Shown: positions 18,684 through 62,196 of the stretch, piece after piece
How positions within the stretch are numbered: position 1 is the first letter of the stretch
Layout of the letters: every line of letters begins with the position of its first letter
IMG/VR virus record: IMGVR_UViG_3300016725_000004
DNA from: a virus
DNA: 64,000 bases
Reading direction: 5' to 3' (one strand)
Program-made: the position numbers and the translations under genes
Notes under the pieces: generated by a model
The model's input: the letters and a program-made list of their open reading frames with translations, nothing else
Database searches by the model: none
Told to the model about the DNA's origin: nothing

Positions 18684-18942
18684 CTGTCCAAATATATTTG
18701 ATATTTGTTATATTCATGGTATTGAGGTTCCTCCTAAGATTAAAATATTTTTCATTTGAAATATCCATTTCAGTCACATCACCGCAATATGAATAATCAT
18801 CTTTAAAACTTTTAGGAGAATGATCTAAATTATACTTTATATACTTATCTTTATCTTCTTTAGTTGGACAAATTACAACACCGTCATCTTTATCAGTACA
18901 ACCACTAGAACGTTCTATCATTTTGATAATATAAATTTTCAT
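18661..18942 (-). CDS. hypothetical protein (93 aa)
   Basis: minus-strand ORF. Confidence 0.4.
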   Translation of the reverse strand: MKIYIIKMIERSSGCTDKDDGVVICPTKEDKDKYIKYNLDHSPKSFKDDYSYCGDVTEMDISNEKYFNLRRNLNTMNITNIKYIWTDDASKYL

Positions 18943-19840: not shown

Positions 19841-20180
19841 TTGTATTCTCCTTTTCTTTTTCTGACTTATATTTAATAAATGCTTCTTTAACCTCAGTGA
19901 AATATTCAAGATAATCTTTATAAAATATACTCCACAAAAATATTGTAAAAAGTAGAAGTATAAAAGAAGAAAAATATGAAATATATATTGGTCCATATAT
20001 TTCATATTTTAATAATATATCTTTAGTATAATAAATTACGATAACAGGAAATTGAAAAGGAAAAATAGAACAAAGTCCGAGTATGGAAAAGAAAAATAAA
20101 ATACAAATTTTGCAAAGTAAATCGTTTCTATAATCATTTAATTTATTCATACAACGATTCCAAATTAGAATTCCAACCAT
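19830..20180 (-). CDS. small membrane protein (116 aa)
   Basis: hydrophobic ORF. Confidence 0.4.
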   Translation of the reverse strand: MVGILIWNRCMNKLNDYRNDLLCKICILFFFSILGLCSIFPFQFPVIVIYYTKDILLKYEIYGPIYISYFSSFILLLFTIFLWSIFYKDYLEYFTEVKEAFIKYKSEKEKENTNGI

Positions 20181-22382: not shown

Positions 22383-24791
22383 CTAGATATTAAATTTATT
22401 ATTTACTTTATCAAATTCTTCAGCAATTTCATCATTTACACGATATTCTTTATTACAAGATAATGCCAAAGCAAGTTGAGCTTTGGTTATTCCTTCACCA
22501 TCTTTACGGCCACATCTTGGGCAAGAATCACCAATTACGCCAACATATCCACATAATGGATCCCTGTCTACTGGATGATTAATTGATCCATACCCAATAC
22601 CTGCATGTTTCATATATTGAATAATTTGTTCAAATGCTTCTGGATTCTCTGCTACGTCACCAGTTACTTCAACATATGAAATATGTCCACCATTTTCATA
22701 TGCATGATAGGGAGCTTCAATATCAATCTTATCAGTAATTGAAATATCATAATATACAGGAACATGATTACTATTTGTATAATAAGCCCTATCAGTTATA
22801 CCGGGAATAACACCAAACTTCTTTTTATCAATATCAACAAATCTACCAGAAAGACCTTCAGCAGGTGTACCAATCAAAGAAAAATTCAACTGTGTTTTCT
22901 GTGTTTGTTCATCACAGCGGTCACGTAGATGCTTTACAATTTTAAGACCTAATTCCTGTGCTTCCGCACTTTCACCATGATGTTTACCAATAAGAGCAAC
23001 TAAAGTTTCAGCTAATCCAATAAATCCAACAGTTAATGTACCATGCTTAATTATTTCTCTAACTTCATCTTCAGGCCCAAGCTTTTCACTGCCAATATAG
23101 ATATGTTGTCCCATAAGGAATGGCATATTTTTACATTTACGTTTAGCCTGTACTTCAAATCTATCCATAAGTTGAATAAAAACTAAATCCAACAATTTGT
23201 CAAGGGATTCAAAGAACTGGTCAATATTATGATTTGCAAGAATACCCAATCTAGGAAGGTTAATACTTGTAAAACTTAAATTACCTCTACCAGTAAAAAC
23301 TTCATAATCTTTATTCACATTACCAACAACACGAGTACGGCATCCCATCGTAGCGGATTCTGTTTCAGGATGACCCGGTACATAATATTGTTTATTAAAC
23401 GGTGCATCCAGAAAAGTAAAGTTAGGAAATAATCTACGACCGCTCACTTTACATGCAAGCTGAAATAGATCATAATTTATATCACCGGGAGTACCATTGA
23501 TTCCGTCCATAACTTTAAAAATATGGATTGGGAAAATAGCAGTTTCCCCATGTCCTAAACCAGCATCAAGAGCATAAAGTAAATTGCTAATAAGCATACG
23601 ACCTTCGGGAGTAGTACAAGTGCCGTAGTTTACACTACTAAATGGAACCTGACTTCCTGCGCGAGAATTTAATGTATTCATATTATGAACAAAAGATTCC
23701 ATAGCTTGATATGTTGATTTATTAGTACGTTTATGAGCAAGTTTGAATACCTTGCGTAAACTATATGCCATATCAAATTCTGTATCATGCACAACATATT
23801 TTTTAATATCACCACTTTTAGCTTGTTCTATATTTGGCATGGAACTTATATGGTCATAACAATCAACTAAACATTCTTCAGTTAATACTGAACCAGTATA
23901 TACTTTAAAAAAGTGCTTAATTTCTTTATAAAGGGGGAAATCTGCAATATCTTCATCTTCAACATAATAGAATGTTTCAATAATATCAAGAACATGTTTT
24001 GCAAAGGTCTTACTAATATATGGAGCTAAATCATAATCAAATTTTGCAATACTCTGACCACCAAACATATCATTCTGACTTGATTGAATAGCAATTGCTG
24101 CAAGAGCAGCAGCAGTTTGAATTGCAGAAGGTTCACGCAAATGTCCAAATCCAGTATTAAAACCATTTTCAAAAAGTTTTCCCAAATCAATTTGAACACA
24201 ATTCAAGCACAGAGGATAAAAATCTAAATCATGAATATGAATACTACCATCAAGATGAGCTTTACTTATTTCAGGACGAAGAAGCATTAAATGTGTAAAC
24301 CGCTTACTTGCTTCTGAACCATAGCGAAGCATAATACCCATACTACCATCACCATTAATATTTGCATTCTCACGCTTTAAATCATTATCTGCTGCATCAC
24401 GCAAAGTTAAATCAGCAATAGTAGTTATCAAATATGAATTTGTTTCTCTTGCTCTATCTCTAGTATAACGATAAGAAATATATTCCTGAGCTAATTCATT
24501 ATAACCAAAATCCATTAACATAAATTCTACTTCATGCTGAATAACATTAATAGTAATTGTAGATTCATTATAGCTGTTAAGCTTTTGTACAACCTGATCG
24601 GTAACACGCATTAAATCTTCATCAGCAATCAATTCAAAATTTTCATTTTTAGATTTTACTGCATCTTGAGCCAAACGAATAGCATGATAAATACGGTTAG
24701 CATCGAACTCTACAGTTTGATTGTCCCGTTTAATTACATTTGTGACCATATGGGTTCCTCCGATTTTTGGGTCAAAAAATAGCTGGTACAT
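22383..24791 (-). CDS. nrdD: anaerobic ribonucleoside-triphosphate reductase (class III RNR) lacking the glycyl-radical tail
   Basis: N-terminal ATP-cone (VIKRDNQTVEFDANRIYHAIRLA), long class III RNR body, C-terminal Cys cluster CGYVGVIGDSCPRCG; no R..GY radical motif at its end. Confidence 0.8.
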   Translation of the reverse strand: MYQLFFDPKIGGTHMVTNVIKRDNQTVEFDANRIYHAIRLAQDAVKSKNENFELIADEDLMRVTDQVVQKLNSYNESTITINVIQHEVEFMLMDFGYNELAQEYISYRYTRDRARETNSYLITTIADLTLRDAADNDLKRENANINGDGSMGIMLRYGSEASKRFTHLMLLRPEISKAHLDGSIHIHDLDFYPLCLNCVQIDLGKLFENGFNTGFGHLREPSAIQTAAALAAIAIQSSQNDMFGGQSIAKFDYDLAPYISKTFAKHVLDIIETFYYVEDEDIADFPLYKEIKHFFKVYTGSVLTEECLVDCYDHISSMPNIEQAKSGDIKKYVVHDTEFDMAYSLRKVFKLAHKRTNKSTYQAMESFVHNMNTLNSRAGSQVPFSSVNYGTCTTPEGRMLISNLLYALDAGLGHGETAIFPIHIFKVMDGINGTPGDINYDLFQLACKVSGRRLFPNFTFLDAPFNKQYYVPGHPETESATMGCRTRVVGNVNKDYEVFTGRGNLSFTSINLPRLGILANHNIDQFFESLDKLLDLVFIQLMDRFEVQAKRKCKNMPFLMGQHIYIGSEKLGPEDEVREIIKHGTLTVGFIGLAETLVALIGKHHGESAEAQELGLKIVKHLRDRCDEQTQKTQLNFSLIGTPAEGLSGRFVDIDKKKFGVIPGITDRAYYTNSNHVPVYYDISITDKIDIEAPYHAYENGGHISYVEVTGDVAENPEAFEQIIQYMKHAGIGYGSINHPVDRDPLCGYVGVIGDSCPRCGRKDGEGITKAQLALALSCNKEYRVNDEIAEEFDKVNNKFNI

Positions 24792-27904: not shown

Positions 27905-27933
27905 ATTATATGCTAAACCAAGTTAAATGTCAA
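27905..27933 (-). promoter_or_regulatory. consensus sigma70 promoter (TTGACA-N17-TATAAT) driving GC-rich insert
   Basis: minus-strand -35 at 27928-27933, -10 at 27905-27910. Confidence 0.55.
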
Positions 27934-33052: not shown

Positions 33053-33081
33053 ATTATACCATACTTTGAAAAGAATGTCAA
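33053..33081 (-). promoter_or_regulatory. consensus sigma70 promoter within 35-bp palindrome
   Basis: TTGACA-N17-TgGTATAAT; palindrome tttcaaagtatggtatattataccatactttgaaa (33037-33071). Confidence 0.55.
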
Positions 33082-37573: not shown

Positions 37574-37602
37574 ATTATACCATAAATAGCCGTTGGTGTC
37601 AA
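37574..37602 (-). promoter_or_regulatory. consensus sigma70 promoter (TTGACA-N17-TgGTATAAT)
   Basis: -35 at 37597-37602, -10 at 37574-37579; core palindrome ctatggtatattataccatag. Confidence 0.55.
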
Positions 37603-39671: not shown

Positions 39672-39700
39672 ATTATATCATAATATATGGTAATTGTCAA
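39672..39700 (-). promoter_or_regulatory. consensus sigma70 promoter (TTGACA-N17-TATAAT)
   Basis: -35 at 39695-39700, -10 at 39672-39677; tggtatattatatca core. Confidence 0.55.
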
Positions 39701-40235: not shown

Positions 40236-40259
40236 ATGTTCTCCTTTTTTCTTATTATA

Positions 40260-41138
40260 CTATATCCTTTCTTGATTGTCAAGATTAGAATATTGACGAA
40301 AATTATCATAGCTACCTTTGCGAATACAAAGTTTAGATATATCTCCAAAGTATTCTTCTAAACAATCAAATAATAATTGGGTAATTTTTACTTCATCTGG
40401 CATTTCAGGTAAATCACAGGATTTACATAATTGATGCAATTCTTTTTCCTGATCTGCAAACCAATTAAGCACCTCGTGTTTAGACCAAGCACCAGTACGA
40501 ATATCTTGTAAATCTTTCTTACGATAATGTAAATCTATCTGTCCAGATTGTAAAATTTGCCTAGCTTCATTTACCAATCTAACTAAGTTGTATGCATATT
40601 TTACATCATATCCATATTTTTCAATTAGTATGCGCCTTTTAGAAAGGCTATCAGGATTCCATTTTGCTTGTAATTTATGTTTCTGTTTATATGCATAACC
40701 AAGATATGTTTTCTTACATAGTTTAGTTACAAATAAACTTCTATTATCACGAACCATCTTTCCAATCTTAGTTTGATTAAGAATACAATCTTGAGAAGAA
40801 AATAAGGAATCAAGAATATTTGGGTTACTTTCAAGTAATAATCTAAAATAATGAACAATATTATAAATTGTTAAATCATGAGATTTATTTTGATACATAA
40901 TATGTGATGGATAATAACCAGTAAATGTAGGAATAGCTGTTGAGAATCCATGTATTTTACCAAAGGAACTAGGAAAAATTAATTCAATAGGAGGGATACA
41001 AAAACTAAAAATATCAATATCTGAAGTTTCAGTTGCTAATCCATAGGCATGACTACCAAGGATAGTTTCATATTCAGTAGTAATTGGAAAATTATAACTA
41101 ATTAAACCGTGTTCAAATAACTGTGATACAATTGACAT
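40260..41138 (-). CDS. nucleotidyltransferase-fold protein (Pol beta superfamily, 292 aa)
   Basis: ILGSHAYGLATETSDIDIFSF (GS..YG...SD.D minimal NTase motif). Confidence 0.5.
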   Translation of the reverse strand: MSIVSQLFEHGLISYNFPITTEYETILGSHAYGLATETSDIDIFSFCIPPIELIFPSSFGKIHGFSTAIPTFTGYYPSHIMYQNKSHDLTIYNIVHYFRLLLESNPNILDSLFSSQDCILNQTKIGKMVRDNRSLFVTKLCKKTYLGYAYKQKHKLQAKWNPDSLSKRRILIEKYGYDVKYAYNLVRLVNEARQILQSGQIDLHYRKKDLQDIRTGAWSKHEVLNWFADQEKELHQLCKSCDLPEMPDEVKITQLLFDCLEEYFGDISKLCIRKGSYDNFRQYSNLDNQERI

Positions 41139-41147
41139 TGTTCTCCT

Positions 41148-41510
41148 TTAAAATAATTGTATATTACCACAAGAATCAATATATGTGACATAAGGTGTAC
41201 GAATAAGATTAACTCCTTTAAACTCTTTAGTATAATTAAATATGTCATTTAAAACCTTTGCAGCTACTTTATCTTCATATTCTTGCAAATTAATATCAGG
41301 TTGTTCTTCAATACAATCTAAATCCTCTGAAAAACTTGAAAGTAAACAATCCAATTCAATACCAGAATTGGTTAATATTGCAATATATTCAAATCCATCA
41401 TCAATATAACGAAAATTAGTTACAGTTACTATTTCATGTTTTGATATTACAGGATTATTATTTTGCAATATATTATGTAAACATTTAACTTTCTGTCCTA
41501 TTTTAAGCAT
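41148..41510 (-). CDS. hypothetical protein (120 aa)
   Basis: minus-strand ORF. Confidence 0.45.
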   Translation of the reverse strand: MLKIGQKVKCLHNILQNNNPVISKHEIVTVTNFRYIDDGFEYIAILTNSGIELDCLLSSFSEDLDCIEEQPDINLQEYEDKVAAKVLNDIFNYTKEFKGVNLIRTPYVTYIDSCGNIQLF

Positions 41511-42364
41511 GCTGTTATCTCCAATATTTCTAGCAACTGGTCATAATTAAGTTTTGAGTAATCTATATCTTTTTTACCTGGAAAGTATTTACAAATCTTT
41601 TCTTCTAGTAGTCTAGCATTAGCTTTGTATATTCTACTTTCTTCTTTACTTCCTTTAGGTTGACAATTATGTTTGTCTTCACTCTCTTTAATATTAGCTT
41701 CAATTTTAGCTATAAGTTTAGATTTTAATTCATCTTGATTCATAACTTTGATAGCGGCATTAACTAGTTGTTCTGGAACTTCTAAAAATTTAGAAAAATC
41801 ACTAGAAGTAAGTTTATTGTGAGGAATAAGAGTATTATACATTTTAATTAATGAAACTATAGTTTCCACTTTTGAAAGATATGGCTCCCTGTATTTATGA
41901 ACTACGAAATATTTATTAGGCAAAGAAATAATAGCTCGTTCTTCTTGATGTTGTATTCTAATATTTGCTTCAATAATACATTTATCTTTTTCTTTAAGTT
42001 CATAAACTAAATTTTTAATATATTCCTCGGATTTTTCATCTTTTATATCTTGAAGAACTTGTTCAACATAACATGTGCAAATTTCTAATATATCAGCGAG
42101 ATCAGTAGCATCCAAATTATTGTCAGGTGCATAAGAATTAAAAGTATCCACTAATCTTTTAGCGGTAAAATTACTAACTTTTCTTGGACAAGAAGCACAT
42201 TCTTTAGCTATTTTATCAAATTCTTCATCAGACATAAAACCAGCTAAATTAGTTACTTGAGCCCGACTAAATTTTAACATGCGTATCAATGACGTTATTA
42301 TTATTTTAATATCAGGGTTAATACTATTCATTAATAACCTCCTGTTCTCGATTATATTTATCAA
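41498..42364 (-). CDS. hypothetical protein (288 aa)
   Basis: minus-strand ORF. Confidence 0.5.
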   Translation of the reverse strand: MINIIENRRLLMNSINPDIKIIITSLIRMLKFSRAQVTNLAGFMSDEEFDKIAKECASCPRKVSNFTAKRLVDTFNSYAPDNNLDATDLADILEICTCYVEQVLQDIKDEKSEEYIKNLVYELKEKDKCIIEANIRIQHQEERAIISLPNKYFVVHKYREPYLSKVETIVSLIKMYNTLIPHNKLTSSDFSKFLEVPEQLVNAAIKVMNQDELKSKLIAKIEANIKESEDKHNCQPKGSKEESRIYKANARLLEEKICKYFPGKKDIDYSKLNYDQLLEILEITACLK

Positions 42365-42932
42365 TAATCATTTTTCTAATTGTTGAATTAATACCTGGAT
42401 TAATTTGTAATACTTCTGGGATTATATTATGTCGTATTCTATTTCTTGGGTGATATACATCTTTATTAGTTTCATCTTCAATCCAACTATAATTATGTTT
42501 AGTCATATATTTAATTAGTTCTTCTTTTGGAGTAAGAAGAAAAGGACGAATAATATTATTACGAGAATAAGGGATTAATTTAGGCTTACCATGAAATGCA
42601 GAAAATAAATAAGTTTCAACACAATCATTTAAATGATGCGCAGTAATTACTGGAGCATCTAAACTCTCTAAAAAATTATATCTATGTTCTCTCCAATATG
42701 CCTCTTTATTTCTTAATATATTATATTTAATCTTTTCAACAATTAAATTAGGTAATCGTTCTTGTAACCAAGCTAATGCATTTTTTGACGTTTCAGTAAG
42801 ATGATTAAAAAATACAGGAATAACTTTACGATTTTTATCTGCACATATAAAATAATAAGCACACATTGAATCTACACCACCGCTAACTGCAACATAGCAA
42901 GTATTTGGAAGCTTTCCTAATAGCTTAATCAT
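42324..42932 (-). CDS. PP-loop ATPase, TilS (tRNA-Ile lysidine synthetase) N-terminal-domain-like (202 aa)
   Basis: YVAVSGGVDSMCAYY (SGGxDS PP-loop) and ITAHHLNDCVETYLF (TilS-like AHhlDDqaET motif). Confidence 0.6.
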   Translation of the reverse strand: MIKLLGKLPNTCYVAVSGGVDSMCAYYFICADKNRKVIPVFFNHLTETSKNALAWLQERLPNLIVEKIKYNILRNKEAYWREHRYNFLESLDAPVITAHHLNDCVETYLFSAFHGKPKLIPYSRNNIIRPFLLTPKEELIKYMTKHNYSWIEDETNKDVYHPRNRIRHNIIPEVLQINPGINSTIRKMIIDKYNREQEVINE

Positions 42933-49998: not shown

Positions 49999-50730
49999 TT
50001 AAAACTTTTCAAAATTTTTGGCTGTCGGCTTCGTTGAAGGAAGAAGGTCTTTCTCCAAATCCTTCAAGGAATCCGCTTCAGTCTGTGAAGAGTTCATCAA
50101 TTCAGTACGAGTTTTACTAGCTTCCAGTTTAGCCTGTAGCTCTGCCGCTTTCCTATCCATTGCAGTAGAAGCAACATTAATGGAAGAATGCTCCTTCGTA
50201 AGACCTTTGATTTCACGCTGGCGCTGTTCCATCTGTTCAGCTTGCTCAAGCTTTGCTTTTGTAATCTTAAGATTACTGGCGCTTTGAGCAATACGTTCTT
50301 TGGCAGTTTCAATAGTCTGCCAATACTGCTTAACAATAGCATTAAGTTCAGTATACTGAGAAGTAGCAACTTCGGCTTCGTCAATTTCTCGTTTAACCTT
50401 ATCATGCATTTTAGCAAGGGTATCATTTATAGTATTCAAACTCTTAGTATTCTTTTCAACATCAATTCCATCTTCAATACGTTTAGCAGCAATATCACGC
50501 ATATCTATATATTTGTTAAAATTGGAGCGAGCTTCATCAGCTTCTTTCTGCTCCCTATCCATATCCATCTTAGCTTTAGCCAACGCACCAGAAAGTTCTT
50601 CAAACTTCTGAAGCATGGCATCAAGCTCGGCTTGAGTCGCAAGCTCCGGATTATTCAAAGCAATAAAATCAGTTACTTTATTTTTAAGTTCAAGAAGAGA
50701 ATTTTTACCAAACATTGTGAAGAATCCCAT
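49999..50730 (-). CDS. PspA/IM30-like coiled-coil protein (243 aa)
   Basis: MGFFTMFGKNSLLELKNKV N-terminus (cf. PspA MGIFSRF), long heptad-rich alpha-helical body; AAGGAG RBS. Confidence 0.4.
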   Translation of the reverse strand: MGFFTMFGKNSLLELKNKVTDFIALNNPELATQAELDAMLQKFEELSGALAKAKMDMDREQKEADEARSNFNKYIDMRDIAAKRIEDGIDVEKNTKSLNTINDTLAKMHDKVKREIDEAEVATSQYTELNAIVKQYWQTIETAKERIAQSASNLKITKAKLEQAEQMEQRQREIKGLTKEHSSINVASTAMDRKAAELQAKLEASKTRTELMNSSQTEADSLKDLEKDLLPSTKPTAKNFEKF

Positions 50731-50741
50731 GATACTGCTCC

Positions 50742-51698
50742 TTACCAACGCCTACGGCGATTGGAGTAAAAATGCCACACAAGCAATATGCTTGCAACAC
50801 TAAAACCAACTAACACGATTGTTCCGAATCCCCAAGAGTCAGCATCGTCTTCATCGACTTCGACAGCCTCAACATTGTCCGGAACAAAATCAGGATTAAT
50901 AGCTACATTAGCAGCTTTCATTTCTTCCATACTCTTTTTTACTTCATCAAGTTGCTTCCTTAAATCTTCATTATCTTTAGCCAATACTTCTGCTTCTGCC
51001 AAGAATGCCTTTACACCTTCATCATTTTGACGATGATAAAAGAAGGCACCTTGATTATTCAAAGCATTAGCAGTAGCCTGATTAGCAGCAGCTTGAGCAT
51101 TAACTTTATTAGAATGATCTAACATCATAAATAACATCATAGAATCCCACCCACCGAAACTAGAATGGGTATTATACACATAAGATGGAGGATTTGAATA
51201 ATAATTATTATTAGGTGTAATAAATGTATAAGTTTTACCTGAAGAACTTGTATATGAATTGGGAATAGTAGGTTTACTTGTATTATATGAGCTAATAGAA
51301 TTTCCCTGTTTTGCAAATTTAGTAGAATCGACTTTAGGTACATTATTCATAATTGTAGTTTTGGTAGCTTTCGGTGTACCTGAACCAAATGAACCTGTAA
51401 AAGAATTATTTACTTTTGGTGTAGAGGGGGAAGTAGAGGATTGAGAAGTTTTAGGAGTAGAGGTAACTTTTGGTGTACCTGAACCAAATGAATCTGTAAA
51501 AGAATTATTTACTTTTGGTGTAGAAGATGAAGGTGAAGAATAAGAGGGTTTAGAGCTAACACTGGGCCTGCTACTCGAAAAACCTCCTCCTCTTCCGCCA
51601 CCACCACTACTTCCACCTTTAGCATCAGTAATTGCGGGAAGAAAAGCTAAGGAAACTACGCAAAATATGATAAGTAGAATACTACTAAATTTTTTCAT
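50742..51698 (-). CDS. secreted/membrane-anchored repeat protein (318 aa)
   Basis: signal peptide, Gly/Ser-rich region, two 33-aa repeats (TPKVNNSFTGSFGSGTPK), C-terminal TM plus RRRRW. Confidence 0.5.
   Translation of the reverse strand: MKKFSSILLIIFCVVSLAFLPAITDAKGGSSGGGGRGGGFSSSRPSVSSKPSYSSPSSSTPKVNNSFTDSFGSGTPKVTSTPKTSQSSTSPSTPKVNNSFTGSFGSGTPKATKTTIMNNVPKVDSTKFAKQGNSISSYNTSKPTIPNSYTSSSGKTYTFITPNNNYYSNPPSYVYNTHSSFGGWDSMMLFMMLDHSNKVNAQAAANQATANALNNQGAFFYHRQNDEGVKAFLAEAEVLAKDNEDLRKQLDEVKKSMEEMKAANVAINPDFVPDNVEAVEVDEDDADSWGFGTIVLVGFSVASILLVWHFYSNRRRRW
51361..51527 (-). repeat. about 99-bp direct tandem repeat (x2) inside CDS 50742-51698
   Basis: ggtgtacctgaaccaaatgaa(c/t)ctgtaaaagaattatttacttttggtgtaga occurs at 51373-51425 and 51472-51524. 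Confidence 0.6.
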
Positions 51699-52309: not shown

Positions 52310-52337
52310 ATTATACCATACTATTATATATTGTCAA
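52310..52337 (-). promoter_or_regulatory. sigma70 promoter (TTGACA-N16-TgGTATAAT)
   Basis: -35 at 52332-52337, -10 at 52310-52315. Confidence 0.5.
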
Positions 52338-53444: not shown

Positions 53445-53699
53445 TTATTTTCCATCGAAAGGAAAATCAATAAGCTGCAAGTATCCTTTCATTTGAGCAA
53501 TAGCAGCTTTTCTCCCTTTGTTAAAACCAAGGGAGTAACTTGTTTGGTGAATAGTTTTCAACTGCTCTTGTAAAGAGCAAATTTTAGTATTACTCTCTTC
53601 TAAGTTTAATAGACACTGAAACTTTTCTTCTGTAGTATCATTTAATTTATCTAGCCAAATTTGGCAAGCATCATGTACTACTAAAGGTTTTTCATCCAT
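53445..53699 (-). CDS. hypothetical protein (84 aa)
   Basis: minus-strand ORF. Confidence 0.4.
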   Translation of the reverse strand: MDEKPLVVHDACQIWLDKLNDTTEEKFQCLLNLEESNTKICSLQEQLKTIHQTSYSLGFNKGRKAAIAQMKGYLQLIDFPFDGK

Positions 53700-54238
53700 T
53701 ATTTATTCTCTCGAATAATTTTAAAAATAAAATCAACAAATTTTTTGTTGAAAAAGTCCTTTCCATATTTTTCAATCATCATCTTCTTAGTAGATTTTGC
53801 CAACTTGTAGTTTGATGGGCCTTCATACAATTTACCAACAAAAGAAGGATAAACTAAAGTGTCAAAGTCCATCGGCGTCTTGACTTCAATTTCAGCGGAA
53901 ATCAGGTTGGTATCATCATAAGAATCAACTTCCCAAATATCAGAACCAATACAAACTTGATAGCGAGTTTTATAATTAAAAACTCCATCGCACATTGAAA
54001 ACAAACTATAAGCTTCCATTCGAGAAACGGGAATATTTACTTCTTCCCGTGAATGCTTGGAAAGTTGTTGCTTCAAAGTAAGGCAATAGGAAATCTTTCC
54101 AGAAATATTTTCAATTCGGATACGACCAACTTTGCCGTCATCATGAAATATAAACCCTTGAAGCATTTTAGAGGTTGACGTAACATGTTCTTTCCAAGAG
54201 TCGCCAACCACTTCAAATTTACGTTCAATTTCGCGCAT
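53699..54238 (-). CDS. CYTH-domain (triphosphate tunnel metalloenzyme) protein (179 aa)
   Basis: N-terminal MREIERKFEVV (EIExKF CYTH signature); follows promoter. Confidence 0.55.
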   Translation of the reverse strand: MREIERKFEVVGDSWKEHVTSTSKMLQGFIFHDDGKVGRIRIENISGKISYCLTLKQQLSKHSREEVNIPVSRMEAYSLFSMCDGVFNYKTRYQVCIGSDIWEVDSYDDTNLISAEIEVKTPMDFDTLVYPSFVGKLYEGPSNYKLAKSTKKMMIEKYGKDFFNKKFVDFIFKIIRENK

Positions 54239-54297
54239 GATTTTATCCTTTTTTCAATTACTAGTATTACTGGCAAAATTACCAATTCACTAGCTAA

Positions 54298-54326
54298 ATT
54301 ATACCATATTTTTATGGTTATGTCAA
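54298..54326 (-). promoter_or_regulatory. consensus sigma70 promoter (TTGACA-N17-TgGTATAAT)
   Basis: -35 at 54321-54326, -10 at 54298-54303. Confidence 0.55.
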
Positions 54327-54880
54327 GGTTCGATTAAATCAATATATAAGCCACAATGGCATTTTCCTACCACCCGCACTTCCTTGCATGGGCAAATTGT
54401 ATCTTCATTTTCGTAAGTAGTACAAGGACAATGACCATTACGATTTTTAATTCTAAAATAAATACGGTCAACTAATTCGGTATTTGGATTCATTACCAAA
54501 ATATTACCTGATTTTGAAAAAATCATAGTACGAGAATTAAGTGAAGAATAATCAGGTTGAGAATTAATAGAATTAAACTTAATTTGTTCCTTGGGAAGTA
54601 TATACCTCCTACCATTACAATTTTGAACCAAGTATTTATCAGTTACTTCAATATCTAATATTCTTGGAGATATTTTTGGACTTTTTGAATCAAAAGCTTT
54701 CTCCCCCAAAGCTTCAATACATGCTACTAAAATAGGAGAATGCTGAGGATAAATTAAATTTGCAATAAAATTTGGATAAACTAAATCAATATTAATATTT
54801 TTTAAATGAGCTAAATTTGGATCGTTTTCAATAAACCATTTAACTGCTTCCTTAGAAAATGTATCACTCAAATTAGTCAT
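54323..54880 (-). CDS. protein with C-terminal CPC..CPC..CHC cysteine cluster (ferredoxin-thioredoxin-reductase catalytic-subunit-like)
   Basis: GHCPCTTYENEDTICPCKEVRVVGKCHCGLY (CPC-x9-CPC-x8-CHC); start taken at MTNLSD. Confidence 0.35.
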   Translation of the reverse strand: MTNLSDTFSKEAVKWFIENDPNLAHLKNINIDLVYPNFIANLIYPQHSPILVACIEALGEKAFDSKSPKISPRILDIEVTDKYLVQNCNGRRYILPKEQIKFNSINSQPDYSSLNSRTMIFSKSGNILVMNPNTELVDRIYFRIKNRNGHCPCTTYENEDTICPCKEVRVVGKCHCGLYIDLIEP

Positions 54881-55415
54881 TGCGAATTTCAAGTTTTCCC
54901 CTCCATTTAATATCATAAGCATATGATAAAAATTCTTGAAATCTAGCAATATGGTCATCAAAAAAGAAATTAAATATTGGAAGTTTATAATGTTGGGCAA
55001 TTCGCAATGCTTGTGTAGTGCCACCAGATTTAGGTGTCCAGCACACAATAAATTCTGTAGGAGTTTTTAAATCAAATCCTAAAACTTGATAGCAATTTCT
55101 ACCATGTAATCGTTGACCATAATCAGATAAGTTAAACCACGCAGGATGAAATTCACAAGCCATATCTAAAGCTTTACCTGTAACTTTATATAAAGGAGAA
55201 GGATTATTATTAAAATTCTTTTCGGGTAAATATATTTCTTTCTTACCTTTTACTAAATCACAACCACGTTCAAATGCAGAATCTGCACCATCTGCACCTC
55301 CAGAACGTAGTATAAATTTATTTTTACCCAAAAGCTTTCCAATATTAACCATTAGTTTTAATATGAACTTAGGAGTATCTCTACTACCAATGCCAGTATA
55401 AATATTAGGAGTCAT
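54873..55415 (-). CDS. SLOG/DprA-like Rossmann-fold protein (DUF2493-type, 180 aa)
   Basis: YTGIGSRDTP ... ILRSGGADGADSAFERG (DprA/SLOG nucleotide-binding motifs). Confidence 0.5.
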   Translation of the reverse strand: MTPNIYTGIGSRDTPKFILKLMVNIGKLLGKNKFILRSGGADGADSAFERGCDLVKGKKEIYLPEKNFNNNPSPLYKVTGKALDMACEFHPAWFNLSDYGQRLHGRNCYQVLGFDLKTPTEFIVCWTPKSGGTTQALRIAQHYKLPIFNFFFDDHIARFQEFLSYAYDIKWRGKLEIRND

Positions 55416-55638
55416 TTTTACGTTCTTTTATTTGTCTTTCATCATATTCATTTGTTATTTCTTTAATCTTTAATACACAAGCATCATATCCAAGTTGATA
55501 CATATTACGTTTATCTTGCTTTAATTCTTCAATCACTTGAAGAGCTTCATTTAATTTTGTTTCAAGGTGTTCAATTCGTTTAAGTAATTGTTTAGTATTG
55601 TTTGGAGGTGGTGGCGGTGGTGGAATAGAGTTTAGCAT
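55405..55638 (-). CDS. Pro-rich/coiled-coil small protein (77 aa)
   Basis: MLNSIPPPPPPPNN then heptad region. Confidence 0.4.
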   Translation of the reverse strand: MLNSIPPPPPPPNNTKQLLKRIEHLETKLNEALQVIEELKQDKRNMYQLGYDACVLKIKEITNEYDERQIKERKNDS

Positions 55639-56063
55639 TATTTTTCCTCCTTAGATTTATCTTTCTCAATTGAGAATACTGAGGGTATAACAACTTTGAA
55701 TTGTTCTCGAATATACTCACAAATTTCTTCAGATACCTTACAAGTAGCAACAATAAATATAATTTGACCTTTCAAAAATGTATGAAGAATCTTCAAATCT
55801 TTTAATTCAATCTGCTTAGTAGCAAATTGTGTGTTATATAAATAAGTAAAATTAACTTTTTCATTTTTATTAAGGTATTCATTAATTCTAGTAACGTAAT
55901 AAATATAATCCGTACCATCAAGAGATAATACTTTGGTAAAAGTTACTTTATGAGCACCAGAAACAACATTATAATCTAAATCCGTAAAACGAAAATCGTT
56001 AAATAATTCAGGAAATTCAAGTGATTTAGGTTCTTGCTTTTTAGGCAACTTTTTGCTTTTCAT
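55638..56063 (-). CDS. hypothetical protein (about 141 aa)
   Basis: start MKSKKLPKK with GGAGGAAAAG RBS. Confidence 0.45.
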   Translation of the reverse strand: MKSKKLPKKQEPKSLEFPELFNDFRFTDLDYNVVSGAHKVTFTKVLSLDGTDYIYYVTRINEYLNKNEKVNFTYLYNTQFATKQIELKDLKILHTFLKGQIIFIVATCKVSEEICEYIREQFKVVIPSVFSIEKDKSKEEK

Positions 56064-56592
56064 CTTTTCCTCCACAGAAAATACAACGATATGTTTCTGA
56101 TGCATTATCATCATCAAAATGCATTACATGTAAACCACAAGGTGAATGGTAACATGGATGATACCCAATCATAAAATTATCATTATATTTAATTTTATTT
56201 TTTATCATTATATCTTCAACATACTCTCTTATAGTATTTTCATATCCCCAAACATATCTAACTACTTCAGCACAACTTTTTTGCAAAATATGCAAACATT
56301 CTATTTTATATTTTAAAGTAGGTTTAGCATTAATTGGTGTAAAACTTTCTTTTGTGGATAATCCACAAAAAATACAAGTTTTATCTCCATAAAATATATC
56401 AGTTATAGCATGATATCCAAAGGGGGAAATAGAACATGTTCCAAAAGTATAATAGGATTCAATTTGAGAATTTTGAATTAAACCTTGTTTAACACAGCAT
56501 TTACCTAAATCATCAAGAAAATTTAATCTAATATTTAGTGAACTTCGTTGTAAATTTCTTAAAGTTAAATAGGATGATATTAATTTTTCCAC
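56041..56592 (-). CDS. Cys/His-rich protein (183 aa)
   Basis: multiple C..C and H..C pairs (CIFCG, PCYHSPCG, CIFCGG). Confidence 0.45.
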   Translation of the reverse strand: MEKLISSYLTLRNLQRSSLNIRLNFLDDLGKCCVKQGLIQNSQIESYYTFGTCSISPFGYHAITDIFYGDKTCIFCGLSTKESFTPINAKPTLKYKIECLHILQKSCAEVVRYVWGYENTIREYVEDIMIKNKIKYNDNFMIGYHPCYHSPCGLHVMHFDDDNASETYRCIFCGGKDEKQKVA

Positions 56593-56912
56593 GGTGAATA
56601 CTTTACTAATTCTTCCATACTCATTACTTCTTTAATAGTACGCTTTCTCAAATCGAGATACGCTTCTTCATTTTGACTTGCAAATACGCAAAAACCCTTT
56701 CCACATTCAGGACAAATAGAATCAATCCAATAATCATCTTGTGAAGGATCATAATTACCTGTATCTGAACTAAGTTTAGAATAGACTTGATTATGATTAC
56801 ATTTACTTTGAAAATTAGCAACTTGTTTCCAAAGTTCAACTTTTTCATCTACATTTCGTCTAATTGCTTGAATAAGATTATTTCTAATTTCTTGCATTTC
56901 AGGAGATTTCAT
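56580..56912 (-). CDS. hypothetical protein with CPECG motif (110 aa)
   Basis: minus-strand ORF. Confidence 0.4.
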   Translation of the reverse strand: MKSPEMQEIRNNLIQAIRRNVDEKVELWKQVANFQSKCNHNQVYSKLSSDTGNYDPSQDDYWIDSICPECGKGFCVFASQNEEAYLDLRKRTIKEVMSMEELVKYSPWKN

Positions 56913-57351
56913 TATTTGACTCCATTGAATTTAGTTCAGTTAGTGATTGCATCATTATATCAGGATTTACAATATTAATCAACATGTCGCCATGCTCAAG
57001 TATACCATCAAGAAAACCCAAATCTCGAAGTACATCAGGTTTCTGTATTTTAGCATCTTTCTTATTTAAGATTTGATTAATTTCATCAATTATAAATCCA
57101 ACCTTATTATTCAAATTACAAACAATAATCTTACAATTTTCATGAATTTCATATGTATTAGAACTTGAACAAATCATACGAAAATCAATAATAGGAACAA
57201 TAGTTCCTCTTAAATTTATAATACCTGCAAGATAATCAGGTGAATTAGGAAGTTTAGTTATATTAGGAATTTTTATAATACAATCCATTTTATTAATATC
57301 CAAACCATATTCAGTATTACCGCATTTAAATGTAATTATATGAATGTCCAT
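56899..57351 (-). CDS. CheW-like domain protein (150 aa)
   Basis: KCGNTEYGLDINKMDCIIKIPNITKLPNSPDYLAGIINLRGTIVPIIDFRMI matches CheW fold signature (..YG....V.EI.....P.....G..NLRG..VPVIDLR). Confidence 0.6.
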   Translation of the reverse strand: MDIHIITFKCGNTEYGLDINKMDCIIKIPNITKLPNSPDYLAGIINLRGTIVPIIDFRMICSSSNTYEIHENCKIIVCNLNNKVGFIIDEINQILNKKDAKIQKPDVLRDLGFLDGILEHGDMLINIVNPDIMMQSLTELNSMESNNEIS

Positions 57352-57352
57352 A

Positions 57353-58108
57353 TTAGACCTCCTGTACTGTAATTTTTAGCCTTGGGCCAGAAATCCAATC
57401 TTCAGCTTCAACATGTTTTAATTCTTGAGGTATTCTATTATAATCTTGATAACAAGTACGCAAACTAACATAATGTTCCTTACGATAATAGTAAAAGCCC
57501 CGTTTACCTTCTCCAATATAACAATCAATTAAAATTTCTGGAATTATTCCCGTACATCTATTTTTCAATTCAATTTGTCTAGTTTCTGGATTCCATACAA
57601 TATCAGCAACTAAGATTTTATTATCGCATTTTAAACAAATACAATAAATTACATATGGATTTAATCTATCTTCTTCTCCATAAGTATTAAACATTGTATA
57701 TTTCTTTTTATTAAACATAAAAGTACAACCACCATAAGCATCAATCCAAGTAGAATTTTTAATAGTATTAGCTATAGTGTTGGTAGATATACCAGCACCC
57801 ATCCAAAAATAATCTGTAAAACCTTCTTCATTTAGAGCTTCCCATTCACTTTCAGTATAATCTTCAATTTCTTCTGGTGTTAAATCACAAATATCATTCA
57901 TACAAAATTCAAGATTCTTATCTGCACCCATAAAAAAGATAATATTTTTTGAAAAACAATATTCAACAAATTTATTATAAATATCTTTATCCCAATGATA
58001 AGGTTGATTTATGCAATCTAAATACCTTTCAATCTTTTTAGGATTATCCATAATACAATATTTAAATTGTTTAAATATAGATAAAAAATAGTCAAATACT
58101 TCCATCAT
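57353..58108 (-). CDS. hypothetical protein (251 aa)
   Basis: minus-strand ORF. Confidence 0.5.
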   Translation of the reverse strand: MMEVFDYFLSIFKQFKYCIMDNPKKIERYLDCINQPYHWDKDIYNKFVEYCFSKNIIFFMGADKNLEFCMNDICDLTPEEIEDYTESEWEALNEEGFTDYFWMGAGISTNTIANTIKNSTWIDAYGGCTFMFNKKKYTMFNTYGEEDRLNPYVIYCICLKCDNKILVADIVWNPETRQIELKNRCTGIIPEILIDCYIGEGKRGFYYYRKEHYVSLRTCYQDYNRIPQELKHVEAEDWISGPRLKITVQEV

Positions 58109-58109
58109 A

Positions 58110-58514
58110 TTAACTCCTCAAATGTGGTGGTTTACAATTATGAATTAAATATTCTTTATCTTCTAATTTAGCTAAATTACATAAATCTGAGAAATAAGGA
58201 ATTTCAGACTCTAGAAAATAAATATGCTTATCATAAGCCAAGGCAAATAATATTTCATCCCAAGCACCCATTCCAATATACCCATTGGTATTTAATACAA
58301 AAATACTATCTGATTGAAATATTTTTTGCTGGTACATTTCATCTAACATGTGTTTTACTTTACCACTCATATCTAAATTCTCTACATGACCAAATAATCC
58401 AACGGTATGAACAATATATCCATCTAAGGTACAACATTTTAATTGCTCTTTCCAAACATTAGGAAATTTAGTTGAGCCGACTAGTGTTAGTGTTGGGAAC
58501 ACAATTATTCCCAA
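58110..58514 (-). CDS. hypothetical protein (134 aa)
   Basis: minus-strand ORF. Confidence 0.45.
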   Translation of the reverse strand: MGIIVFPTLTLVGSTKFPNVWKEQLKCCTLDGYIVHTVGLFGHVENLDMSGKVKHMLDEMYQQKIFQSDSIFVLNTNGYIGMGAWDEILFALAYDKHIYFLESEIPYFSDLCNLAKLEDKEYLIHNCKPPHLRS

Positions 58515-58777
58515 CTTACAGTTGTTTTATCATAATCATTATCATAAGATACTTTATAATCATCTTTTCGTAATTGTTTAATTGTTTGTTCTATTACTTT
58601 ATTTTGGATAGATGCAGGAGAAGATTTAACAATATTTAATAAATTCACGGTACACTGAAAATATCCTTGTACTGCATTTTGCATACAAAGTTGTGTTACT
58701 TTGTAAATACATTCATCAACCTTTTGTTCAATATTAAGTGTAGTATTAGCTATTTCTCTCAATTTAGCCGCATTCAT
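58505..58777 (-). CDS. hypothetical protein (90 aa)
   Basis: minus-strand ORF. Confidence 0.4.
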   Translation of the reverse strand: MNAAKLREIANTTLNIEQKVDECIYKVTQLCMQNAVQGYFQCTVNLLNIVKSSPASIQNKVIEQTIKQLRKDDYKVSYDNDYDKTTVSWE

Positions 58778-59540
58778 AATTTCCCCCTAATTCAGGATGA
58801 AAATTTATTAATTGTTTGCTTTGCTTATTATACATTATTTCAGTCAATAACACAAACACTTGCAATCTATCAATTTGAGTATTTGTACTTAATACAAAGA
58901 TATATTTAGTTAAACAAATACCATCTGAAGGAGTATTAGTACAAAGATTACATTTAATACTAGTTTTAATATTAAAAGATTTTATTGCTTCTTTAATACA
59001 GGCATTACAATTATTTTGCATTTCATCAAAATAATTAAATATTTCTTTTTCGACAAATTCAACTAAATTATTTAGTTTCTTTTTAATTGTAGGAAAAGCA
59101 TATTCATATTTTCTAATCAATTTATTACGAGTAAATTCATCTAATTTTGCCATTCTATCTTTAGCAGTATTATGACTCATATCTGAGTATTTTATACAAA
59201 TCAATTCTAAATTATTTGTTGCCAATATATCTTCTATATAATCAATATATTTTTTATGTTTGTTGTTAAGTAATTGAATTAAATTTTTTGCATAAGGTGA
59301 TAACGTAATATTAATTTTAGCTAAATCTTCTTCGAGTATATCTAATGTAATATCTGTGTCTTCTAATAAATCATGAAAATATGCTGCAAGTCTTGCTGAA
59401 TTTGAAACCCAAATAGGTAAGTTATTTGAAACAGCTATAGGATGATGATAATAAGGTTTTCCAACCTTATCAACTTGAGTACCATGATATTTTATTAGTA
59501 ATTGGGCAATTTGTTCTGATTGTTTTAAACTAAATCCCAT
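58764..59540 (-). CDS. RelA/SpoT-type HD-domain hydrolase (small alarmone hydrolase-like, 258 aa)
   Basis: KYHGTQVDKVGKPYYHHPIAVS ... LAAYFHDLLEDTDIT (RSH hydrolase motifs G.PY..HP..VA and HDxxEDT). Confidence 0.6.
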   Translation of the reverse strand: MGFSLKQSEQIAQLLIKYHGTQVDKVGKPYYHHPIAVSNNLPIWVSNSARLAAYFHDLLEDTDITLDILEEDLAKINITLSPYAKNLIQLLNNKHKKYIDYIEDILATNNLELICIKYSDMSHNTAKDRMAKLDEFTRNKLIRKYEYAFPTIKKKLNNLVEFVEKEIFNYFDEMQNNCNACIKEAIKSFNIKTSIKCNLCTNTPSDGICLTKYIFVLSTNTQIDRLQVFVLLTEIMYNKQSKQLINFHPELGGNYECG

Positions 59541-60163: not shown

Positions 60164-60501
60164 TTTAGCAGCTTTGATTTGTAACTATCTAAAATTGTAT
60201 TATGATGTCCAATGCTCTCTTCTAAAGAAGGTCTAGCATCTTTATTTTTAATGTTAGGAGTAGGAGGGGTTTTTACTTTTGGAGAAGTATCCGGAATATT
60301 AGAGGTAGTAGCAAATAATGAGGAAGGTATCACACCAAAAAATGTAGCAGCAGAAGAAATACTAAACATTAAAGTAATTAAAATTATTACAATACAAAGG
60401 ATACGAATCTTTTTGTTCTTATACACAGAAAAACAATAACAAGAAATTAATAGTATAAACATTATAATAGCCGTTACGAATAATATTGAAAATAATGACA
60501 T
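60160..60501 (-). CDS. small membrane protein (113 aa)
   Basis: two TM helices. Confidence 0.4.
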   Translation of the reverse strand: MSLFSILFVTAIIMFILLISCYCFSVYKNKKIRILCIVIILITLMFSISSAATFFGVIPSSLFATTSNIPDTSPKVKTPPTPNIKNKDARPSLEESIGHHNTILDSYKSKLLK

Positions 60502-61349
60502 TATTTTGTACTCTTACATATAGGAAGCATTCCACCACCTAAAGCAATGGGTGTACCTTCATCGGCTGCATCTGCAAATCTTTCAATAGTTTTAAGAAGC
60601 ATAAATTCAGAAGTAGGAATACCTAATTCTTTTGCTATAGCAGCATCATTTCTAGCACGAACAGCTTGAACAGCTTGCCGCTGACTTTCAATTGCAAGTT
60701 GAGCTTCAAGCTCCCGAAGTTTACGCGCTCTTTCTTCATTTACTGCATATAGACGTTCTTTAGCATCAAGAACAACTTTAGGTGGAGTACCAACACCATT
60801 AGGAAATCCAAATTCAGTTATTTCAATAGGTGTAGATTCAAGTTCTTTATTTAGGGCAGCTTTAGCTTGCTTAGATATTTCTGAAACATTTGACAGAACA
60901 TCATCAATAGAATATTCACGCAAAATATCAATTACAACTTCAGGGGCTTTTCGAGCAATATAGGTATTATACATCATTTCAGAAGTAATTACAAATGTTG
61001 AATCCTTTTCTTTTTCAGCACGAGTAGAAAAAGCTTCATTAATAGATGCTTTATCTTCCTTCACACGAAATTGAATACCAAAGGTAACATCATCAACAGT
61101 TACATTTGATATGGGAAGAAATATTTTATCCACATGAATAGTATGAGCAGAGAAAGAGGTTTGTAATCGTACAAGTTTAGGACAAGCAGAAATAAAACAA
61201 ATATCCATACGAAATGTTCCCGGCTCACGAATTGTTGATTCTAAACCAGAAGATGTTAATTGTTTACCTTTTTCACCATTATTAATGGTTACTTGTTCGC
61301 CACATGCAGTTAGCATGAGAAGCAAACAAATAATAAAGATATTTTTCAT
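60501..61349 (-). CDS. SPFH/band-7-domain lipoprotein (282 aa)
   Basis: lipoprotein signal MKNIFIICLLLMLTACGE; VTVDDVTFGIQFRV...INEAFS...RKAPEVVIDILREYS and Ala/Gln-rich coiled-coil tail typical of prohibitin/HflC-like proteins. Confidence 0.45.
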   Translation of the reverse strand: MKNIFIICLLLMLTACGEQVTINNGEKGKQLTSSGLESTIREPGTFRMDICFISACPKLVRLQTSFSAHTIHVDKIFLPISNVTVDDVTFGIQFRVKEDKASINEAFSTRAEKEKDSTFVITSEMMYNTYIARKAPEVVIDILREYSIDDVLSNVSEISKQAKAALNKELESTPIEITEFGFPNGVGTPPKVVLDAKERLYAVNEERARKLRELEAQLAIESQRQAVQAVRARNDAAIAKELGIPTSEFMLLKTIERFADAADEGTPIALGGGMLPICKSTK

Positions 61350-61582
61350 GAATTTCTCCGAGTTAAGGTTAATGGGCCTGAGGTAAAAGTTACTCCCACG
61401 TCATGCAAACCAAGTGCTGCACACCGTTTAGCAATACAACAAATACACAATAATCCTGCCCCTTCTATTTCAGGAATAGGACTAATAACTCTCCAAACTT
61501 CATCAGGAACTATACAATCAATCCAACCTAAACCACCATATTTTCTACCGCAATCATAACATTCACCACTAGGTCTAATCAT
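61346..61582 (-). CDS. small Cys-rich protein (78 aa)
   Basis: CYDCG ... CICCIAKRC. Confidence 0.4.
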   Translation of the reverse strand: MIRPSGECYDCGRKYGGLGWIDCIVPDEVWRVISPIPEIEGAGLLCICCIAKRCAALGLHDVGVTFTSGPLTLTRRNS

Positions 61583-62196
61583 TATTCTTGCTCCATTATT
61601 TCAACATCATGTTTAAAAATATTAATACAATCTTCTAATCTATATTTACGAATTACTCGCTTTTTCTTAATATAAAGTTGTCCATCTTTTTTAAAAAATT
61701 CGACTTCATCTCCATCCGACAAAGATAAATCTTTAAGAATTTCTTTAGGAAGACGAATAGCCAAGCTATTGCCCCATTTACTAACCTTAGAACTAAAAAC
61801 TTTTTCATATTGAGCATTAAGAATTTTCAGTATTTTATCACTAGCATTATATACTTTATATCCAATATAATATACACCTTCTCTAAAATTACAAAATTCT
61901 AAAATTACATCCATTTGAATAAATTCATCAAATAATTTAGTTGAAACAAAGGAGGGATCATTTTCATAATTATATTTTTTATATTTATCAAAAATAAGAT
62001 CATAAACTTCTTTATCATTAGAATTATTACAAGCAAGTTTATATTCTATAATAAAAGGATTAGTATTTAAATCCTGATAACCACCATTTTTGGTATAAAT
62101 TCTGTTATAAGTACACATATTAATAATATCTTGCGCTTTAACTGGTGCTTCCAATTTGATTTCCATTTTTCCCTCCATAAATTTCGTTAAGGTCAA
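61582..62196 (-). CDS. protein with C-terminal AbrB/MazE-type swapped-hairpin domain (204 aa)
   Basis: C-terminal VSKWGNSLAIRLPKEILKDLSLSDGDEVEFFKKDGQLYI. Confidence 0.45.
   Translation of the reverse strand: MTLTKFMEGKMEIKLEAPVKAQDIINMCTYNRIYTKNGGYQDLNTNPFIIEYKLACNNSNDKEVYDLIFDKYKKYNYENDPSFVSTKLFDEFIQMDVILEFCNFREGVYYIGYKVYNASDKILKILNAQYEKVFSSKVSKWGNSLAIRLPKEILKDLSLSDGDEVEFFKKDGQLYIKKKRVIRKYRLEDCINIFKHDVEIMEQE

Follow-up and report, generated by a model that had tools for sequence, protein, structure and literature searches.

Adjacency without conserved linkage among CYTH, SLOG, CheW and alarmone hydrolase-like genes of a probable jumbo phage

The 64,000-nucleotide stretch of IMG/VR virus record IMGVR_UViG_3300016725_000004 analyzed here (the window) carries, at 53699 to 59540, five genes that a first-pass annotation had grouped as a cluster linked to nucleotide signaling. 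They encode a CYTH triphosphate-tunnel enzyme homolog (CYTH), a protein with a cysteine cluster (Cys-protein), a SLOG/DprA-like protein (SLOG), a CheW-like adaptor (CheW) and a RelA/SpoT-type HD hydrolase homolog (HD). This gene content was borne out, and all five genes lie on the minus strand (Table 1). The window comes from a metagenomic contig of 233,379 bp (ena:ERZ27250305:k141_22416), and the same genes are also present on two shorter contigs from other samples. The GC content of the window is ~27% for most of its length, and all open reading frames (ORFs) of at least 120 aa lie on the minus strand, save those that merely overlap a longer gene. Several window proteins match phage protein families (PHROGs), the large ORFs at the center of the window have no PHROGs match, and the IMG/VR contigs with relatives of individual window genes are 67 to 254 kb long. 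The source is therefore likely to be a jumbo phage; the 5.8-kb interval had no megablast match among 50,697 phage records. The analysis described below leads us to regard it as reasonably probable that the interval is a stretch of the one-directional accessory-gene array of this ~233-kb, 27% GC probable jumbo phage, comprising two transcription arrangements and four or more unrelated functions, and not a single system. The apparent cluster is an adjacency without conserved linkage.

From HD to the Cys-protein gene, successive genes overlap by 1 to 23 nt or are spaced by 1 nt, and the sole sizeable intergenic gap of the region is the 84 nt between the Cys-protein gene and CYTH. A perfect sigma-70 promoter of the extended -10 type, TTGACA-17-TGGTATAAT, that is, TTGACA-17-(TG)GTATAAT, lies in this gap at 54326-54298 on the minus strand. 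The flagged domains had been described as lying under this promoter and downstream of it. Because it is a minus-strand promoter located between the Cys-protein gene and CYTH, it drives only CYTH, orf84 and the tRNA-Arg gene, and the other four flagged genes lie upstream. Two hairpins follow the tRNA-Arg gene on its 3' side, the second of which is terminator-like; the tRNA was the only match in an Rfam scan. With a promoter before CYTH and a terminator-like hairpin after the tRNA, sequence prediction does not place the five genes in one transcription unit. The window contains seven perfect sigma-70 sites, all on the minus strand, against 0.12 expected by chance, and these probably mark transcription units read by the host RNA polymerase (early units).

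Conservation of the gene group was assessed in 240 comparison loci (~4 Mb), comprising 80 viral loci around SLOG homologs, 80 around HD homologs and 80 around homologs of PurZ, a succinoaminodeoxyadenylate synthetase-type protein encoded elsewhere in the window, and every minus-strand ORF of the window was compared with these loci by tblastn. CYTH homologs were found in none of the 240 loci, and neither were CheW homologs. HD and SLOG homologs co-occurred in two contigs only, adjacent in IMGVR_UViG_3300029305_005136 (sampled as L019, L100 and L179) and 9.4 kb apart in the other (L251). A domain like that of the Cys-protein, which resembles ferredoxin:thioredoxin reductase (FTR; see below), stood beside SLOG in a single locus (L077). 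On a 247-kb contig (L011), a distant relative has retained SLOG along with counterparts of the window genes located at 50742-51698 and 49999-50748, and neither an FTR-like gene nor CYTH is present between SLOG and those counterparts. Recurrent co-occurrence across genomes, the mark of a multi-gene anti-defense set, was thus not seen in the 240 loci, and PADLOC matched none of its models to the 10 proteins searched. Human-fecal fragments labeled "Bacteriophage sp." that encode CYTH or CheW homologs were considered as relatives and discarded, as no other gene was common to them and the window.

Within the interval, seven unrelated ORFs lie among the flagged genes, and nucleotide-related genes (NrdD, PurZ, a PP-loop ATPase, RlaP, DUF488 and AAA_28) are scattered over the whole window. 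With these intervening and scattered genes, and with a combination that does not recur in the comparison loci, the suggestion of a nonrandom cluster was not sustained. In line with this, a comparative study of 224 jumbo phages found DprA/SLOG, CYTH and HD-alarmone genes scattered across genomes (Iyer et al. 2021, PMC7824862). In that catalogue, each of the three domain types is represented by single genes dispersed over genomes of >200 kb, whereas here the three lie within 6 kb, a proximity that is not conserved in other genomes. Its authors proposed that jumbo-phage SLOG proteins of the DprA/Smf type bind single-stranded DNA (ssDNA), that the CYTH and MazG triphosphatases remove canonical nucleoside triphosphates (NTPs), and that the "HD-alarmone PDEase" counters alarmone-based immunity (PMC7824862). 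The window genes are new, diverged members of families known or predicted in large phages.

The N-terminal ~150 aa of HD correspond to a small alarmone hydrolase domain of the RelA/SpoT type, and the C-terminal ~110 aa form a lineage-specific extension that is common only to the three closest homologs. HD matches the hydrolase part of TIGR00691 spoT_relA (E = 1.6e-9, profile positions 7-119) and phrog_990 (E = 5e-22); its best match in the PDB is Aph1 (7SMG, E = 3.5e-10), and it also matches Rel/RelA hydrolase domains of known structure (E = 1e-7 to 1e-5). The call of a SpoT-type hydrolase is confirmed by these matches, the Pfam HD_4 match being weak (14.3 bits, cut-off 27.2). An exhaustive search of representatives yielded 3,181 homologs, most of which stand alone and are 140-170 aa long; in a word-indexed homolog search, the only match to HD was HD. 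In an alignment of HD with its 40 best homologs (41 sequences), the catalytic residues H33, H56-D57, E60-D61, D120 and N124 are invariant, and D24-K25, R129 and Y145 vary little or not at all.

Aph1 is a (p)ppApp-specific hydrolase that gives immunity to the MuF-fused synthetase toxin Apk2 in a Bacteroides prophage. Its signature residues are D24, R96, D116, R119, K133 and Y134, and mutagenesis showed that D24 and R119 determine specificity for (p)ppApp (PMC10083569). HD D24, R129 and K144-Y145 correspond to Aph1 D24, R119 and K133-Y134, and HD lacks conserved equivalents of R96 and D116. The two proteins thus have in common the HD fold family, the catalytic H/HD/ED/D...N residues, D24, R119 and the K-Y pair. 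HD differs from the Aph1 of the Bacteroides caccae prophage in its modest identity (~30-35%), in the two residues not kept, and in the added ~110-aa extension. On this evidence HD is most likely an Aph1-type small alarmone hydrolase, and it represents a concrete candidate for a virus-encoded (p)ppApp hydrolase. From its residues and family, HD would act on (p)ppApp by removing its 3'-pyrophosphate, and perhaps likewise on related substrates that are 3'-pyrophosphorylated, an activity that could neutralize a growth-arresting toxin of the RelA/SpoT type, whether part of a host defense or carried by a phage. A counter-defense or counter-toxin role is therefore plausible for HD by analogy, because the SpoT/Aph1-type family has a demonstrated toxin-neutralizing role; among the flagged genes, HD alone has such a precedent.

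Since Aph1, the closest relative of solved structure, acts as an immunity protein in its prophage (PMC10083569), HD might likewise protect against a (p)ppApp-synthetase toxin that the phage itself injects, rather than counter a host defense. The setting of HD makes this very improbable. Precomputed Pfam matches place no RelA/SpoT synthetase or MuF domain within ~10 kb on either side of CheW, a range that spans the surroundings of HD, and most Aph homologs are not beside such synthetase toxins (PMC10083569). Whereas Aph1 belongs to a toxin-immunity cassette of a prophage, HD lies in a large lytic-type genome without an adjacent (p)ppApp synthetase toxin.

The SLOG/DprA-like call was likewise upheld, by a match to phrog_768 (E = 1e-56), the motifs GIGSR (in a glycine-rich N-terminal loop) and SGGADGAD, and an AlphaFold2 (AF2) model with a SLOG fold (pLDDT 95.5) built from a 56-sequence family alignment in which 21 columns are invariant. 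In Pfam, LDcluster4 and DNA_processg_A are both below threshold (DNA_processg_A 14.1 bits, cut-off 29.6), and no sequence match was found in the PDB. The best Foldseek matches to the model are DprA, Moco carrier protein, LOG, ShosA and PpnN, at TM ~0.55 and 14-19% identity; the 22 matches at E <= 0.001 comprise DprA, Moco carrier protein, LOG, ShosA, YgdH and the structural-genomics protein TM1055. Because all the nearest folds are equally distant, the model indicates that SLOG is a member of the SLOG superfamily belonging to a family of its own and not a DprA ortholog. DprA proper has a SAM-like N-terminal domain and a C-terminal winged helix, both lacking from SLOG, which is a single domain of 180 aa. 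As modeled, SLOG has the same Rossmann-like fold as the SLOG sensor domain of ThsA (Thoeris) and the ssDNA-binding SLOG domains of DprA and ShosA, all of which are equally remote from it (identity <20%); unlike ThsA, SLOG has no SIR2, TIR or other effector domain. Its own phage family is highly conserved and large, with >2,274 homologs and 1,477 GenBank phage records.

The genomic neighbors of SLOG homologs point mainly to DNA metabolism. Among 128 immediate neighbors in the 80 viral loci, the Pfam families matched most often were ribonucleotide reductase (RNR; four), DUF3987 primase/helicase (three) and AAA_19/AAA_30 helicases (two), with one each of ThyA, ThyX, dUTPase, dCMP deaminase, family-A polymerase (PolA), PhoH and uracil-DNA glycosylase (UDG), and one of the anti-Pycsar protein Apyc1. 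On jumbo contigs, SLOG contexts include helicases, NAMPT, NADAR, dUTPase and RNR. The phage SLOG family (PHROG 768) is also recurrently tied to ADP-ribose processing, as seen in SLOG-NADAR fusions (P0066 and P0139), in a 509-aa SLOG-NADAR-DUF4326 fusion (L025:9959-11494), in a Macro-domain gene next after SLOG in L019, and in a NADAR gene near SLOG in L013. SLOG is predicted to bind a nucleotide, an ADP-ribose-like ligand or ssDNA, within a DNA-precursor or replication module. The links to class III RNR (see below) and to NADAR and Macro narrow the functional search for a family found in ~1,500 sequenced phages. In a separate observation, the SLOG homolog at L019:10001-10477 has an in-frame TGA exactly at the conserved tryptophan of the family (YLPW), which could reflect TGA-to-Trp recoding, a sequencing error or a pseudogene.

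The Cys-protein gene overlaps SLOG, and the CPC-x9-CPC-x8-CHC cluster recognized in the first pass occupies residues 151-176 of the protein. This cluster matches Pfam FeThRed_B (22.7 bits, cut-off 22) and is, as judged from sequence, the core of an FTR catalytic subunit, with its six cysteines and a histidine. The complete catalytic domain of ~106 positions is not present: residues 150-180 match profile positions 45-86 only. The Cys-protein thus differs from FTR in having only a ~30-45-residue Cys core, fused to a separate N-terminal domain of ~130 aa. The first Cys spacer of plant and cyanobacterial FTR is 16 residues, compared with 9 in the Cys-protein. The protein also matches phrog_38239 and is 46% identical to the small crAss001 gp5, annotated as "putative ferredoxin-thioredoxin reductase," and 42% identical to a 59-aa ORF in L077.

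The order of genes at L077 (9767-13386) is SLOG, the 59-aa FTR-like ORF (CPC...CPC...CIC), a 73-aa NrdH/glutaredoxin-like ORF (CSAC), NrdD and NrdG; an apparent SLOG-FTR fusion in this locus was rejected, as it consists of two adjacent ORFs. This order ties the SLOG/Cys-cluster pair to the supply of deoxynucleoside triphosphates (dNTPs), and the window has an NrdD of its own (22383-24791). The simplest reading is that the overlapping pair belongs to the DNA and dNTP-metabolism tool kit of the phage and would not serve in signaling. By the same gene order, the probable role of the mini-FTR Fe-S domain is to reduce a redoxin that serves the phage NrdD; no redoxin partner for the Cys-protein was identified in the window. 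The FTR-like disulfide reductase of Methanosarcina barkeri feeds class III RNR via an NrdH-like redoxin, and the L077 mini-protein resembles such reductases in lying directly upstream of NrdH-like, NrdD and NrdG genes. Gene order thus ties both the common phage SLOG family and the mini-FTR proteins to class III RNR operons, and it suggests a function in anaerobic ribonucleotide reduction for the mini-FTR proteins of phages, crAss001 gp5 among them.

CYTH is, from its sequence, a homolog of the triphosphate-tunnel metalloenzymes. It scores above threshold in Pfam (PF01928, 27.9 bits, cut-off 23.2; E = 2.5e-6; residues 1-121), matches phrog_6660 (E = 5e-9), and has the full set of charged motifs: E3-I-E5-R-K7 (the EIERKF motif by which it was first recognized), R39-I-R41, K90-T-R92, E103-V-D105 and E116-I-E118. 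No PDB sequence match was found, and a single-sequence AF2 model (pLDDT 36.9) was unusable for judging the eight-stranded beta-barrel tunnel fold. Jumbo phages of Vibrio, Pseudomonas, Xanthomonas and Erwinia encode homologs with 26-33% identity, and some of these homologs are annotated as CYTH or inorganic triphosphatase. In these cultured phages the homologs lie amid long runs of hypothetical genes, occasionally with MazG/Nudix-type enzymes, thioredoxin or RNR nearby. A literature search found no study of phage CYTH function. CYTH would be a triphosphate-tunnel hydrolase, transcribed along with tRNA-Arg from a host-type promoter of its own, and it probably hydrolyzes (d)NTPs or inorganic triphosphate.

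CheW has a full-length Pfam match (E = 8e-25, 87.5 bits, cut-off 23.5; profile positions 2-135 of 138) that extends over both CheW subdomains, and it matches CheW structures in the PDB (E = 1e-17). It keeps G43, the NLRG loop (N46-L47-R48-G49) and P53. Its nearest relatives are bacterial cheW genes within loci for methyl-accepting chemotaxis proteins (MCPs) and CheA. When compared with representatives of 185,579 species, it reaches no more than 39% identity (30-39%); many of the best matches are in Lachnospiraceae and other Clostridia, and the genome scan indicated no clear host. Scans of 2.9 million IMG/VR contigs, both single-protein and with an alignment-based pattern, found no relative, and GenBank phages gave six weak matches. 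A full-length CheW carried by a virus thus appears to be rare, and a literature search found no study of phage-encoded CheW. The window protein differs from bacterial CheW in its virus-like genome, in having no CheA or MCP nearby (no chemotaxis genes lie within ~10 kb on either side), and in its identity of at most 39-44% to any bacterial CheW found. CheW is presumably a diverged gene of bacterial origin, and it is without a link to nucleotide signaling. A possible role, which we infer from the known family, is that it could insert into host chemoreceptor arrays and disturb chemotaxis signaling; this rare virus-borne gene offers an opening to ask whether phages manipulate host chemotaxis.

The first-pass annotation had linked all of the domains to nucleotide second messengers and suggested that they form a counter-defense set that degrades or sequesters signals. 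In the fullest form of this proposal, HD destroys alarmones, CYTH cleaves a triphosphate-bearing signal, and SLOG sponges cADPR-type signals, the targets being Thoeris, CBASS, Pycsar or toxSAS systems. Several findings fit: HD is a hydrolase of the Aph1/SpoT type; ThsA senses its ligand through the same fold as SLOG, and NADAR and Macro domains are found fused to phage SLOG homologs or next to them; an Apyc1 homolog is among the 128 SLOG neighbors; HD and SLOG adjoin in L019; and such counter-nucleotide enzymes have been predicted in jumbo phages (PMC7824862). Nevertheless, joint action of the set is unsupported, for several reasons. The promoter separates CYTH from the other genes. CheW and the FTR-like Cys cluster are not nucleotide-signaling domains and, like the seven unrelated ORFs, are interspersed among the candidates. 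SLOG belongs to a very large phage family whose neighbors are overwhelmingly replication and dNTP genes, and its model is no nearer to signal-binding SLOG proteins than to DprA or LOG. SLOG and a Cys-cluster gene adjoin in one comparison locus, directly before NrdH-like, NrdD and NrdG genes, which points to ribonucleotide reduction. Finally, CYTH and CheW co-occur with SLOG or HD in none of the 240 loci, and there is no PADLOC match. Counter-defense thus stands as a plausible role for HD alone, and we consider the complete set unlikely.

A different common purpose is suggested by PurZ (9260-10324, minus strand), which matches the PurZ proteins of phiVC8 (E = 2e-51) and S-2L (E = 3e-45) in the PDB and has the motif GQFGSTGKG, with serine in place of the catalytic aspartate of PurA. 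Because of this gene, the phage may make DNA containing 2-aminoadenine (Z-DNA). A single-protein PurZ scan of IMG/VR gave no match, no DatZ or MazZ was recognized beside PurZ, and none is visible in the window. HD, orf134, SLOG, the FTR-like protein and CYTH might all serve the supply of DNA precursors, including those for Z-DNA, with CYTH, HD or both clearing unwanted (d)NTPs as DatZ and MazZ do. The surroundings of PurZ in relatives favor such a link. A 254-kb IMG/VR contig (L099) has the order PurZ (77% identical to that of the window), a 97-aa ORF, a homolog of orf134 (55% identical; 11304-11855), and class II RNR; weaker orf134 homologs occur in L102, L085 and L086. In L019, the row of HD, SLOG and the Macro-domain gene continues into PurZ. 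The RNR, ThyA, dUTPase and dCMP deaminase neighbors of SLOG, the L077 gene order, and the proposed removal of canonical NTPs by jumbo-phage CYTH and MazG (PMC7824862) fit as well. The PurZ context argues for nucleotide supply as a broad theme in part of the interval.

As an account of all five proteins, however, this proposal is doubtful. PurZ is 44 kb from the interval, CYTH is near none of the 80 PurZ loci, and HD carries the Aph1 alarmone-hydrolase signature, DatZ being absent from its 12 PDB matches. The closest PurZ loci of relatives also hold the classical PF04447 dATP/dGTP pyrophosphohydrolase and a YfbR-like HD protein, along with PolA and RNR, and DatZ and MazZ may be encoded in the other 169 kb of the genome. 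Narrower still is the idea that the early-promoter CYTH, and possibly the Aph-like HD and orf134, are non-orthologous replacements for DatZ and MazZ that clear dATP or supply dGMP; we think this rather improbable, and if true, the 2-aminoadenine DNA pathway would have a new enzymatic version. orf134 itself has no Pfam, PHROG or PDB match. A nucleoside 2-deoxyribosyltransferase-like or DUF1937 identity for it was unsupported by Pfam at E <= 10, by a PDB search, and by BLASTP against the DUF1937 neighbor of a CheW homolog. A second HD protein of L019, located beside PurZ, is not recognizably DatZ.

Some points weigh against our preferred reading, that the interval is a mixed stretch of an accessory-gene array. 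The loci available for comparison are distant and small in number, with the same genes on just three or four contigs, so that missing synteny partly reflects the scarcity of close relatives. The tblastn comparison used single sequences and can miss homologs below ~25% identity. The contiguous row of HD, SLOG, Macro-domain gene and PurZ in L019 means that some functional coupling of HD and SLOG is possible. With regard to ribonucleotide reduction, the FTR match of the Cys-protein is limited to the Cys core and lies just over the Pfam threshold, and no NrdH-like or NrdG protein was recognized in the window with the L077 proteins as queries. The label "phage" is based on PHROG matches, genome architecture and IMG/VR relatives; a jumbo phage is likely and unproven, because no virion gene was identified within the window.

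Table 1. Features of the interval and its flanks, with the perfect promoters of the window (window coordinates)
Feature	Coordinates	Strand	Remarks
HD	59540-58764	-	258 aa
orf90	58777-58505	-	Overlaps neighbors; phrog_8208, E = 1.8e-5 (PHROG of unknown function)
orf134	58514-58110	-	ORFan
orf251	58108-57353	-	Stop 1 nt ahead of CheW start
CheW	57351-56899	-	150 aa
orf110	56912-56580	-	Zinc-ribbon-like, phrog_4837
orf183	56592-56041	-	Cys-rich
orf141	56063-55638	-	Small overlapping ORF
orf77	55638-55405	-	Small overlapping ORF
SLOG	55415-54873	-	180 aa
Cys-protein	54880-54323	-	185 aa; 8-nt overlap with SLOG stop
84-nt gap	54322-54239		Between Cys-protein stop and CYTH start
CYTH	54238-53699	-	179 aa; first gene of its own unit
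orf84	53699-53445	-	Second gene of the CYTH unit
tRNA-Arg(UCU)	53437-53362	-	Directly 3' of the CYTH-orf84 pair, same orientation
GC-rich hairpin, then short T-run (TTTT)	53319-53290	-	Terminator-like
TTGACA-N16-18-TATAAT promoters	27905-27933, 33053-33081, 37574-37602, 39672-39700, 40254-40282, 52310-52337, 54298-54326	-	Five of seven with extended -10 TG

Among the remaining ORFs of the interval, orf251 has no match in Pfam, PHROGs, NCBIfam or PADLOC, and a small ORF that follows a CheW homolog in L014 was considered as a relative of orf110 and rejected as not homologous. Elsewhere in the window, accessory genes at 18939-20005, 40260-42932 and 60501-62196 encode DUF488-N3a and DUF5662 proteins, an RlaP nucleotidyltransferase, a PP-loop ATPase, an SPFH/Band-7 lipoprotein and a protein with a C-terminal MazE/AbrB domain. 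Just past the window end is a NADAR gene (L001:1068-1577). Finally, an island of 49% GC in this 27% GC genome (26987-27883, minus strand) encodes a low-complexity protein with lysine-rich segments and a long poly-Asp/Glu tract made up of imperfect tandem repeats of 6-36 nt.

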